Positions 34,462 to 37,882 of a DNA stretch of 64,000 bases are shown one piece after another. This DNA comes from Escherichia coli (lineage in GTDB: Bacteria > Pseudomonadota > Gammaproteobacteria > Enterobacterales > Enterobacteriaceae): the NCBI RefSeq assembly GCF_003334765.1, contig NZ_QOWT01000002.1; one strand, written 5' to 3'. The position numbers and the translations under genes were made by a program. The notes below the pieces were generated by a model that was not told the DNA's origin, searched no databases, and was given only the letters and a program-made list of their open reading frames with translations. The first letter of the stretch is position 1, and the number at the start of each line of letters is the position of its first letter.

Positions 34462-34923
34462 ATGAAGGCTTTCAATAAGCTGTTTTCCCTCGTTGTTGCA
34501 TCTGTTCTGGTTTTCTCTCTTGCTGGCTGCGGTGACAAAGAAGAATCGAAGAAATTCAGCGCCAATCTGAACGGCACTGAAATTGCCATTACCTATGTCT
34601 ACAAAGGTGACAAGGTGCTTAAGCAATCTTCTGAAACCAAAATTCAATTTGCCTCCATTGGTGCAACCACCAAAGAAGATGCTGCCAGGGCACTTGAGCC
34701 GTTAAGCGCCAAATACAAAAACATCGCGGGTGTTGAAGAAAAATTAACCTATACCGATACCTACGCGCAGGAAAACGTGACTATCGATATGGAAAAAGTG
34801 GATTTTAAAGCCCTGCATGGTATTTCAGGAATCAACGTTTCTGCTGAAGATGCCAAAAAAGGTATCACTATGGCGCAAATGGAACTGGTGATGAAAGCCG
34901 CTGGTTTTAAAGAAGTGAAATAA
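34462..34923 (+). CDS. yehR: Lipoprotein of unknown function (DUF1307-like)
   Basis: ORF 34450..34923; MKAFNKLFSLVVASVLVFSLAGC lipobox signal peptide. Confidence 0.8.
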   Translation: MKAFNKLFSLVVASVLVFSLAGCGDKEESKKFSANLNGTEIAITYVYKGDKVLKQSSETKIQFASIGATTKEDAARALEPLSAKYKNIAGVEEKLTYTDTYAQENVTIDMEKVDFKALHGISGINVSAEDAKKGITMAQMELVMKAAGFKEVK

Positions 34924-34963
34924 TCTGTCGGCGGCCATGTTTCGCATGGCCGCCATACCCGTC

Positions 34964-35434
34964 TTAGCTTTTCTTCACATGCTGGCGCGCTGCCAGTCCA
35001 CGCAGAAAATAACGTAAAAATTGATCGCCGCATTCGCGGAAGTTTTTATGATCCGGTGCACGCATCATCGCCGTAATTTCCGGCATCGAAACGCGGAACT
35101 GCTGTTCGGTGAGGATCGCCAGAATGTCATCGGTTTTCAGCGAAAACGCGATGCGTAATTTTTTCAGCACGATGTTGTTATTAATGCGACGTTCCGGCTC
35201 CAGTGCCGGAGCAGACTCATCCTTGCCGCGTTTTTCATAAATCAGGCCATTGAGGAATGACGACAAAACAATGTCCGGACAACGCTGAAAACCCTCTTCG
35301 TCTTCTTTACGTAGCCAGACGGCGATCTGTTCCGCGGTGGCTTCGACATTACCCAGCGCCAGAATACGCACCAGGTCATTATTATTGGCTTTCAAAATGT
35401 AGCGCACGCTGCGCAGAATATCGTTACTTAGCAT
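34964..35434 (-). CDS. yehS: DUF1456-family protein
   Basis: ORF 34964..35491; start set at MLSNDILRSVRYILK (156 aa). Confidence 0.78.
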   Translation of the reverse strand: MLSNDILRSVRYILKANNNDLVRILALGNVEATAEQIAVWLRKEDEEGFQRCPDIVLSSFLNGLIYEKRGKDESAPALEPERRINNNIVLKKLRIAFSLKTDDILAILTEQQFRVSMPEITAMMRAPDHKNFRECGDQFLRYFLRGLAARQHVKKS

Positions 35435-35480
35435 GAGGCCTTCAGGTGTTGATGAGGCAAAAAGCCATTTTAGCAGTCTT

Positions 35481-36200
35481 TTACAGGCCAATCGCCTCTT
35501 TTAAGCTTTTCAGATAACGGCGGCTGACCGGCACGGTTAAGCCATTACGCAAAATCAACTCGGCCTGGCCGTTATCTTCCAGACGAATCTCCTGTAAATG
35601 CGCGAGGTTAACCAGATACTGACGATGGCAGCGCAGTAGTGGTGTACGACTTTCCAGGGTACGTAATGTCAATTCGGTAAAGCCCTCTTTCCCTTCGTGG
35701 CTGGTAACGTAGACACCGCTCATCCGACTGCTGACAAATGCCACATCTTTCATTTGCAGCAAATAAATCCGACTATGCCCAGTACAAGGGATAAATTTCA
35801 GCGCCTGTTGATTTTCTGGTAACAGCGAAACATCCTGCTTGCTGCGTTCCTGCCGCAAACGCGCCAGCGTTTTCTCCAGTCGCGCTTCATCAATTGGCTT
35901 CAGCAGATAATCAAAGGCGTGTTCTTCAAAGGCTTTAATGGCGTATTCGTCAAACGCGGTGAGAAAAACAATATACGGACGATGTTCCGGGTCGAGCATC
36001 CCCACCATTTCCAGACCACTGATGCGCGGCATCTGGATATCGAGAAACAGCACATCCGGGCGCAGTTTATGCACCGCGCCGATCCCTTCCACGGCGTTTG
36101 AACACTCACCAACGATTTCAATATCGCTCTGCTCCTGCAAAAATACGCGCAGGTTCTCCCGTGCTAACGGTTCATCATCGACAATTAAGACTTTAATCAT
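35481..36200 (-). CDS. btsR: LytTR-family response regulator BtsR (YehT)
   Basis: ORF 35481..36215; [17 protein letters not shown] receiver domain plus LytTR C-terminus; overlaps btsS stop by 4 nt. Confidence 0.9.
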
Positions 36201-37882
36201 GCCTCGTCCCTCCATGGTAGTCGTAACGTTATTCGGGTGTAACTATCAGGCTCACAGGCGACGCTTATCCCATAGTCATCGCCAAACCGTTCACGTAAAC
36301 GCTTATCCACCAGATTCATCCCCAGCCCACTGGCATTGGTTACCGGTTGATACAAACCGGCATTGTCTTCGATCTCCAGCATTAAATGTTGCCCCTCACG
36401 TCGGGCGCTGATTGCCACTCGCCCTGTATCCAGCAGTTGTGATGTCCCATGTTTAATGGCGTTTTCCACTATCGGTTGCAGGGTAAACGCGGGCAATTGC
36501 TGCTGGGATAATTCTTGCGGAATAGCAATGTTGACCTGCAACCGCGACTGGAAGCGCGCCTTTTCAATTTGCAGATAAGCATTCACATGTTCAATTTCGT
36601 CGGCGAGAGTAACAAACTCCGAAGGCCGCTTTAAGTTTTTGCGGAAAAAAGTGGAAAGATACTGCACCAGCTGGCTGGCCTGTTCGCTGTCGCGACGGAT
36701 CACCGCTTTAATGGTGTTAAGCGCATTAAACAAAAAATGGGGATTCACCTGGGCGTGAAGCAGTTTGATCTCTGACTGGGTGAGCATCGCTTTTTGCCGC
36801 TCATATTGCCCGGCAAGGATCTGCGCCGAAAGCAGTTGCGCAATCCCCTCGCCCAGCGTGCGGTTGATTGAACTGAATAAACGGTTTTTGGCTTCATACA
36901 ATTTGATGGTGCCCATCACCCGCTGATTTTCACCACGCAACGGAATTACCAGCGTCGACCCCAGTTTGCATTGCGGATGCAAAGAGCAACGGTAAGGTAC
37001 TTCGTTGCCATCAGCGTAGACCACTTCACCGGTTTCAATCGCTTTTAAGGTATAAGTCGAAGAAATCGGTTTGCCGGGTAAATGGTGGTCGTCACCAATT
37101 CCGGTAAAGGCTAGCAATTTCTCTCGATCGGTAATCGCGACTGCACCAATATCCAGCTCCTGATACAGCACCTGTGCCACTTTCATGCTGTTCACTTCGT
37201 TAAACCCCTGGCGCAAAATGCCTTCCGTCGAGGCCGCCACTTTCAGCGCAGTGGCAGAAAAAGCTGAAGTGTATTTTTCAAACATCGCGCGTTTATCGAG
37301 CAATATACGCATAAACAGCGCCGCGCCGACGGTATTGGTGACCATCATTGGCGCAGCAATATTACTCACCAGACGTACCGCATCTTCATAAGGTCGGGCG
37401 ATCGCCAGGATGATCAACATTTGCACCATTTCAGCGACGAACGTGACGGCACCGGCGGTAATGGGGTTAAAGACTTTATCAGTGCGCCCGCGACGGATCA
37501 GGATGCTGTGTACCAGGCCGCCGAGCAATCCTTCAACGATGGTTGAGATCATGCAACTTAGCGCGGTCATGCCCCCCATCGAATATCGATGTAAGCCGCC
37601 GGTCAGACCAACCAGCCCACCGACGACCGGACCGCCGAGTAAGCCGCCCATTACCGCGCCTATCGCACGGGTATTGGCAATAGAATCGTCAATGTGCAAC
37701 CCAAACCAGGTGCCCATGATGCAGAAGATGGAAAAGACGATGTAGCAGAGAAATTTATGCGGCAGACGAACCGTGACCTGCATTAACGGTATGAATAATG
37801 GCGTTTTACTCATTAACCACGCAATGACTAAAAAAACGCACATCTGCTGAAGCAGCAGCAACACCAGATTAAAATCGTACAT
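36197..37882 (-). CDS. btsS: LytS-type sensor histidine kinase BtsS (YehU), pyruvate-sensing
   Basis: ORF 36197..37897; start at [13 protein letters not shown]; 5TM-LytS N-terminus, GAF region and His-kinase motifs ([11 protein letters not shown]). Confidence 0.9.

Follow-up and report, generated by a model that had tools for sequence, protein, structure and literature searches.

The yehR region and its described counterparts

The YehR lipoprotein of E. coli K-12 is a member of Pfam family PF06998 (DUF1307) with a solved structure (PDB 2JOE, NESG target ER538). The genes that converge on it encode BtsS and BtsR (YehU/YehT), a known pair that senses pyruvate with high affinity and activates btsT (yjiY), together with YehS, whose gene is a conserved downstream companion. 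We analysed a 64,000-nucleotide stretch of E. coli DNA (RefSeq assembly GCF_003334765.1, contig NZ_QOWT01000002.1; hereafter the window) in which yehR directly follows an accessory cassette ending in yehL, yehM, yehP and yehQ. Compared with these described systems the locus holds no surprise in gene content: yehR, yehS, btsR and btsS are known, already annotated genes, window YehR differs from the K-12 protein by strain-level substitutions only, and window BtsS and BtsR are identical to their RefSeq entries. The first-pass annotation raised the possibility that yehR is functionally tied to yehLMPQ, for example as an envelope-facing partner. Our analysis favours, with a probability of about 0.85, a different relationship, in which yehR is an ancestral enterobacterial DUF1307 lipoprotein gene with its own leader that has come to neighbour yehLMPQ through gain and loss of the accessory cassette and is not its partner.

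Coordinates were taken from the RefSeq annotation of an identical stretch (window position = locus position + 20999). Positions 33000-39000 are matched in all 5426 complete E. coli genomes compared, several of them at 100% identity. The interval 34462-37882 runs exactly from the start codon of yehR to that of btsS. The yehR gene (34462-34923, + strand) encodes a DUF1307 (YehR family) lipoprotein of 153 amino acids and converges on yehS (34964-35434), btsR (yehT, 35481-36200) and btsS (yehU, 36197-37882), all on the - strand. Domain matches support the gene names, so these are real genes and not chance open reading frames; together with the RefSeq annotation they bear out the gene identities, strands and LAGC lipobox of the first-pass annotation. 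Its estimate of about 125 nucleotides between yehQ and yehR was likewise right, since yehQ ends at 34337 and the gap measures 124 nucleotides. This spacer (34338-34461, + strand), which we compared in an alignment of upstream regions, is the leader or 5' region of yehR. By the gene map the cassette (molR/yehH-like, yehI, yehK, yehL, yehM, yehP and yehQ; 19684-34337, + strand) is the immediate same-strand upstream neighbour of yehR, but yehR is not one of its components.

yehR and the cassette occur without each other

The arrangement in E. coli would fit a yehLMPQR unit, in which yehR is the last gene and encodes a co-transcribed, envelope-anchored partner needed by the MoxR-vWA-SWIM cassette: the genes share a strand, the gap is short and no strong terminator follows yehQ. 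The distribution of the genes in other genomes argues against such a unit. Close relatives of YehR were collected by scanning one genome per species with exact peptide patterns, which yielded 12 loci, and these were mapped by tblastn with all window proteins. In Salmonella enterica (L002) the order is metG, yehR, a second DUF1307 paralog, yehS-btsR-btsS, mlrA and the osmF operon, with no cassette. The simpler cassette-free order metG - yehR - yehS-btsRS is found in Citrobacter sp. Res13 and C. amalonaticus (L009, L012), two Superficieibacter (L010, L013), the gut isolate MGYG-HGUT-00110 (L011) and Pseudescherichia vulneris (L022). Thus yehR stands without the cassette in at least seven species from six genus-level groups. 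None of the best 120 relatives of YehM (DUF5682) is named from Salmonella or Citrobacter.

Individual E. coli strains tell the same story. Strain E69 keeps yehR with only the last 73 codons of yehQ between it and metG, strain SCPM-O-B-8794 keeps yehR while yehP and yehQ are reduced to fragments, and in strain P470 an IS1-bounded deletion has spared 44 nucleotides of yehQ together with the complete leader and yehR, which is intact. Strain 19KM1766N has lost both the cassette and yehR to an IS1 deletion. Among the 5426 E. coli genomes, 5425 match the yehR region and 5363 match yehLMPQ; roughly 60-220 of these genomes are without some or all of yehLMPQ. About 175 of the 5426 cover less than 80% of the yehR region (34338-34963) in one piece, and the matching places in this region outnumber the records by about 114. 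This suggests that insertions or partial deletions have recurred at yehR in E. coli, with P470 and 19KM1766N as examples of IS1-bounded deletions.

Conversely, the cassette occurs with no DUF1307 gene nearby. Among the genera from which relatives of YehM carry their names are Escherichia, Klebsiella, Intestinirhabdus, Erwinia, Serratia, Edaphovirga, Massilia and Variovorax, and many others are named from Betaproteobacteria and Xanthomonadales. Serratia fonticola (L017), Erwinia sorbitola (L024) and Variovorax (L023) carry the same core of WGR/DUF4132, AAA_5, DUF5682, vWA and SWIM-type genes at three unrelated chromosomal sites. In each of them the cassette ends at the SWIM gene and gives way to unrelated genes, and no DUF1307 gene lies in the 7-9 kb examined downstream of it.

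The order of the two elements also varies. A 1.28-Mb metagenomic enterobacterial contig (L025; JGI 3300011679) encodes a YehR with 89% identity to the Superficieibacter protein and has the gene order metG - yehR - cassette (4321-15413) - yehS-btsRS. Upstream of this yehR lie the metG terminator and the usual leader; downstream, and before the cassette promoter, it has its own hairpin with a T-tract. Because yehR precedes the cassette here and has its own terminator, it is not a 3' operon member in this genome. The position of yehR relative to the cassette is therefore not fixed: it is downstream of yehQ in Escherichia and upstream of the whole cassette in L025. An advocate of the yehLMPQR unit could still point out that cassette and yehR adjoin in L025, on the other side, but the inverted order counts against the unit, as do the yehR genes without a cassette and the three distant hosts with a cassette and no nearby DUF1307 gene.

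Depending on the enterobacterium, the cassette is thus seen on either side of yehR, in the metG-yehR interval in E. coli and in the yehR-yehS interval in L025. Either a variable spot or independent insertions would account for this.

Phylogenetic co-occurrence of yehR with yehLMPQ, which the first-pass annotation had proposed as a check, fails in both directions, since yehR is present without the cassette and the cassette is present without a nearby DUF1307 gene. The suggestion that YehR is a functional, envelope-facing partner of yehLMPQ is not supported, and we give the yehLMPQR unit almost no credence. In the ancestral-gene reading, the conserved backbone would be metG - yehR - (yehS-btsR-btsS) - mlrA - yohO - yehWXY-osmF, and yehR would lie 124 nucleotides after yehQ only because the cassette occupies the metG-yehR interval in the E. 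coli lineage. The cassette would be a self-contained element that ends at yehQ, is found at other sites elsewhere and has been gained, lost and degraded independently of yehR. Such a history would stop the annotation of YehR as a yehLMPQ component by guilt by association, a practical gain that is modest, and would set the 3' boundary of a poorly understood cassette at yehQ, which is useful for studies of the cassette itself. It would also mark the metG-yehS interval as a variable spot in Enterobacteriaceae, where insertion, deletion or decay of the cassette has left yehR itself stable.

The yehR leader is conserved independently of yehQ

We aligned 13 yehR upstream regions from six genus-level groups. 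Conserved blocks recur both where yehQ precedes the leader and where the metG terminator does, which is a further point against a yehLMPQR unit. On the + strand of the window these blocks comprise a box, ACTCCAgTTCCGGACTGC (34363-34380), the hexamer TATTCT (34401-34406) and a 22-nucleotide block around the Shine-Dalgarno sequence and start codon, ATAAAATGGAGTTTTACATGAA (34445-34466), which is almost invariant in the 13 sequences. The E. coli spacer is homologous to the yehR upstream sequence of cassette-free species, and in E. coli this homology starts no more than a few bases from the stop codon of yehQ. This is the pattern left by a cassette whose edge abuts a yehR control region that was already there. 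In cassette-free species a clear metG terminator precedes the blocks, and expression of yehR in these genomes must therefore come from the leader region. An independent yehR transcript starting in the conserved leader would be the natural reading, and most likely yehR is expressed as its own monocistronic unit, ending at a GC-rich hairpin common with yehS.

That hairpin (34930-34954, 11 bp, not assigned to one strand) sits in the 40-nucleotide convergent spacer between the stop codons of yehR and yehS. Its folding energy is -22.5 kcal/mol (z = -4.5) on the + strand and -22.3 kcal/mol (z = -4.0) on the - strand, and none of 200 shuffled sequences folded as well. There is no clear T-tract on either strand. 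It is a probable shared 3'-end or terminator structure of yehR and yehS.

The 22-nucleotide ATAAAATGGAGTTTTACATGAA block is better conserved than the yehR coding sequence that follows it. From this pattern, the block may be a site of translational control, for example by a small RNA or an RNA-binding protein.

Several points weigh against the independence of yehR from the cassette. The co-occurrence evidence comes from a sample of about 25 loci, and for Salmonella and Citrobacter the view that no cassette lies elsewhere in the genome draws on the names of homologs. A DUF1307 gene adjoins the cassette in three genus-level groups. Such a gene follows yehQ in Escherichia spp., in Klebsiella grimontii after a gap of just 12 nucleotides and in K. 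aerogenes after 92 nucleotides. No sigma-70 consensus was found at the scan threshold on the + strand of the yehQ-yehR spacer; read by eye, TATTCT with an upstream TGCTCA matches at best 7 of 12 sigma-70 positions. The sole terminator-like element after yehQ is a weak 7-bp hairpin, CTGGTGAGAGTCACCAG (34416-34432, + strand), which is present in Escherichia and whose folding is not significant (z = -1.0). Because this hairpin is weak, some read-through from yehQ into yehR is possible when the cassette is de-repressed.

We consider the same hairpin a poor candidate for a yehQ terminator on account of its 7-bp stem and its z-score; by eye, hairpin-capable sequence is also present at the corresponding position in some cassette-free species. 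It is more likely a feature of the 5' untranslated region than a terminator. A search of Rfam over 33800-38300 gave nothing above noise (one chance small nucleolar RNA match, E = 0.17), and thus no known riboswitch or small RNA in the leader.

Three candidate regulators of yehR were considered and set aside. The BtsR motif consists of two ACC[G/A]CT[C/T]A copies in direct orientation, separated by 13 bp. In E. coli the yehR leader contains a single imperfect copy (ACTGCTCA), with no conservation in other genera. A Salmonella table places yehR among candidates for the LexA regulon with p = 0.058 (PMC2225428); the CTG-N10-CAG motif is absent from all yehR leaders checked. Finally, a sigma-32 chromatin immunoprecipitation site was reported at yehR and failed reproduction (PMC2996942).

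A second DUF1307 subtype in Salmonella and Klebsiella

Each of the two Klebsiella loci has a single DUF1307 gene (L016, 15438-15899; L026, 15506-15970), and the second Salmonella paralog (t0699; L002, 10631-11161) is an extra copy beside yehR. All of them resemble YehR in Pfam family and in their metG-yehS neighbourhood, but the proteins are only 33-40% identical to it. They share a Cys-Asp lipobox and a conserved cysteine pair (...AKISxLCxLPGxS..xCS), and YehR is without this pair. Cys-Asp is the classic inner-membrane retention signal under the +2 rule. Given the low identity, the Cys-Asp lipobox and the cysteine pair, the Klebsiella genes represent a different subtype and are not YehR orthologs, which counts against a yehLMPQR unit.

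A weakened form of the yehR-cassette link survives in these bacteria, where co-transcription of the DUF1307 gene with yehQ is plausible. One could go further and suppose that the repeated adjacency of DUF1307 genes and cassette is no coincidence and that, at least in the Klebsiella oxytoca/aerogenes lineage, a DUF1307 lipoprotein has been recruited into the operon as a membrane-anchored output or sensor of an SOS-controlled MoxR-vWA-SWIM system. We consider this very unlikely, and for yehR of E. coli the evidence argues against such recruitment.

The convergent yehS-btsR-btsS genes

The description of these genes in the first-pass annotation as a convergent LytS/LytTR pyruvate-sensing operon with yehS agrees with the RefSeq annotation and with our domain searches. 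BtsS, a LytS-type histidine kinase and pyruvate receptor, contains the Pfam domains 5TM-5TMR_LYT, GAF_2, His_kinase (PF06580) and HATPase_c. Arg72, Arg99, Cys110 and Ser113 are reported as pyruvate-binding residues (PMC10653868), and all four are present in the predicted protein when the translation is numbered from the start at 37882. BtsR is a response regulator with REC and LytTR domains, which are also found on its orthologs, and scores 420.3 bits against the NCBIfam BtsR equivalog model NF008677 (cut-off 246). The btsS and btsR genes overlap by 4 nucleotides. Downstream of btsR by 46 nucleotides, and in the same position in every enterobacterial locus examined, yehS encodes a 156-residue protein with two DUF1456 repeats (residues 4-70, E = 4e-25; residues 86-150, E = 1e-23). 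Reg-Seq treats yehS as a gene with its own promoter region (PMC7567609).

The position of yehR invites the alternative that its functional link is to these genes, with YehR as, for instance, an accessory lipoprotein in the periplasm that modulates the response of BtsS to pyruvate. Apart from Salmonella, Superficieibacter electus (L010) and L025, yehR is directly convergent with yehS in the examined enterobacterial loci that have a YehR ortholog, the strong hairpin in their 40-nucleotide spacer is common to both genes, and BtsS senses an extracellular or periplasmic ligand (PMC5431176). However, the whole metG-bglX backbone is syntenic among close relatives, so vertical inheritance explains the adjacency of yehR and yehS, and because the genes converge, yehR and yehS-btsRS cannot share a transcript. 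The adjacency is also interrupted, by the cassette in L025, by the second paralog in Salmonella and by about 0.8 kb in S. electus. The DUF1307 genes of Listeria and Paenibacillus have neither a LytS/LytTR nor a DUF1456 neighbour, and yjiY is the sole reported target of BtsR (PMC5431176). We judge a functional link of yehR to yehS-btsRS to be unlikely.

Beyond btsS, mlrA is annotated by RefSeq at 38104-38835 on the + strand.

YehR and the DUF1307 family

YehR matches PF06998 over the full model (positions 1-123 of 123, E = 8.2e-45) and the PDB entry 2JOE ('lipoprotein yehR') with E = 4e-76, which assigns it the fold of the family. The protein begins with MKAFNKLFSLVVASVLVFSLAG, the signal peptide of residues 1-22, followed by CGDKEE; the lipobox Leu-Ala-Gly-Cys occupies residues 20-23. 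The putative lipidated residue is Cys23 (codon 34528-34530), which is followed by Gly-Asp and is nearly invariant in a 60-sequence alignment. The start codon at 34462 is backed by a GGAG 7 nucleotides upstream, and also by Salmonella, where the in-frame upstream ATG of yehR runs into a TAG stop.

YehR is predicted to be an exported protein that carries its lipid on Cys23 and is anchored to a membrane on the periplasmic side. Most likely, although at low confidence, it would serve as a binding or scaffold module without enzymatic activity on the outer face of the cytoplasmic membrane; this site is favoured because the family is abundant in bacteria that have no outer membrane. YehR appears among the inner-membrane lipoproteins listed in a preprint (10.1101/2021.01.05.425367), and yehR is up-regulated in a cya mutant (PMC4512719).

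DUF1307 is a lipoprotein family common to Gram-negative and Gram-positive bacteria, with a solved structure. It forms about 412 clusters at 50% identity, with members in Streptococcaceae, Listeria, Paenibacillus and Aeromonas, and a lipoprotein of the family is also described from Staphylococcus aureus (PMC5020093). In Listeria and Paenibacillus the genes lie in unrelated neighbourhoods. The lipoprotein of the Streptococcus pneumoniae SP_0191 family (PDB 2MVB; NCBIfam NF041193) shares 17% identity with YehR; we discarded the assignment of YehR to that family, as the match is confined to the signal-peptide region and reaches 20 bits against a cut-off of 75, and it is a different family. E. coli YehR is 40% identical to a DUF1307 protein of Listeria costaricensis (L020, 1854-2312) and 42% identical to the Pseudescherichia protein at the orthologous locus. 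The similarity of these two values hints at fast evolution or an old transfer between Firmicutes and Enterobacteriaceae.

Composition and control of the cassette

The cassette spans about 14.7 kb and fills the metG-yehR interval in the E. coli lineage. Its proteins are a molR/yehH-like WGR/DUF4132 protein, YehI, YehK, the MoxR-type AAA_5 protein YehL, the DUF5682 protein YehM, the vWA protein YehP and the SWIM protein YehQ. PADLOC models matched neither YehR, YehS nor any cassette protein and so lend no support to a known defence system.

A LexA-type box (CTG-N10-CAG), CTGGATAAAATTACAG, lies at 19684-19699, upstream of the first cassette gene. Four enterobacterial loci have such a box directly before the first cassette gene (molR/WGR), namely the window, the two Klebsiella loci (L016, position 1470; L026, position 3008) and L025 (position 4913), where it reads CTGTATAAAAAAACAG. 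molR is listed with a known SOS box (PMC6590174), and WGR- and DUF4132-containing proteins are induced by DNA damage in Deinococcus (PMC8533742). Taken together, the conserved box, the listing of molR and the induction in Deinococcus suggest that the whole MoxR-vWA-SWIM cassette may be a DNA-damage-linked system. Two further controls have been described: BglJ-RcsB activates the molR promoter (PMC3950696), and H-NS binds an intergenic region near yehL, and hns/stpA mutants show de-repression of yehL and yehM (PMC3686432). There is no sign of export in the cassette proteins, and the cytoplasmic or DNA-damage-type controls of the cassette, such as the LexA box, are absent from yehR; both features run counter to a yehLMPQR unit.

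E. coli strains differ in the 5' half of the cassette. Positions 20036-27145 of the window hold the molR/yehH-like open reading frame region and an intact yehI encoding 1210 amino acids, upstream of yehK. A strain that is 100% identical to the window over 33000-39000 (L001, 1399-6146) instead has two pseudogene fragments, of a WGR protein and a DUF4132 protein, fused or truncated.

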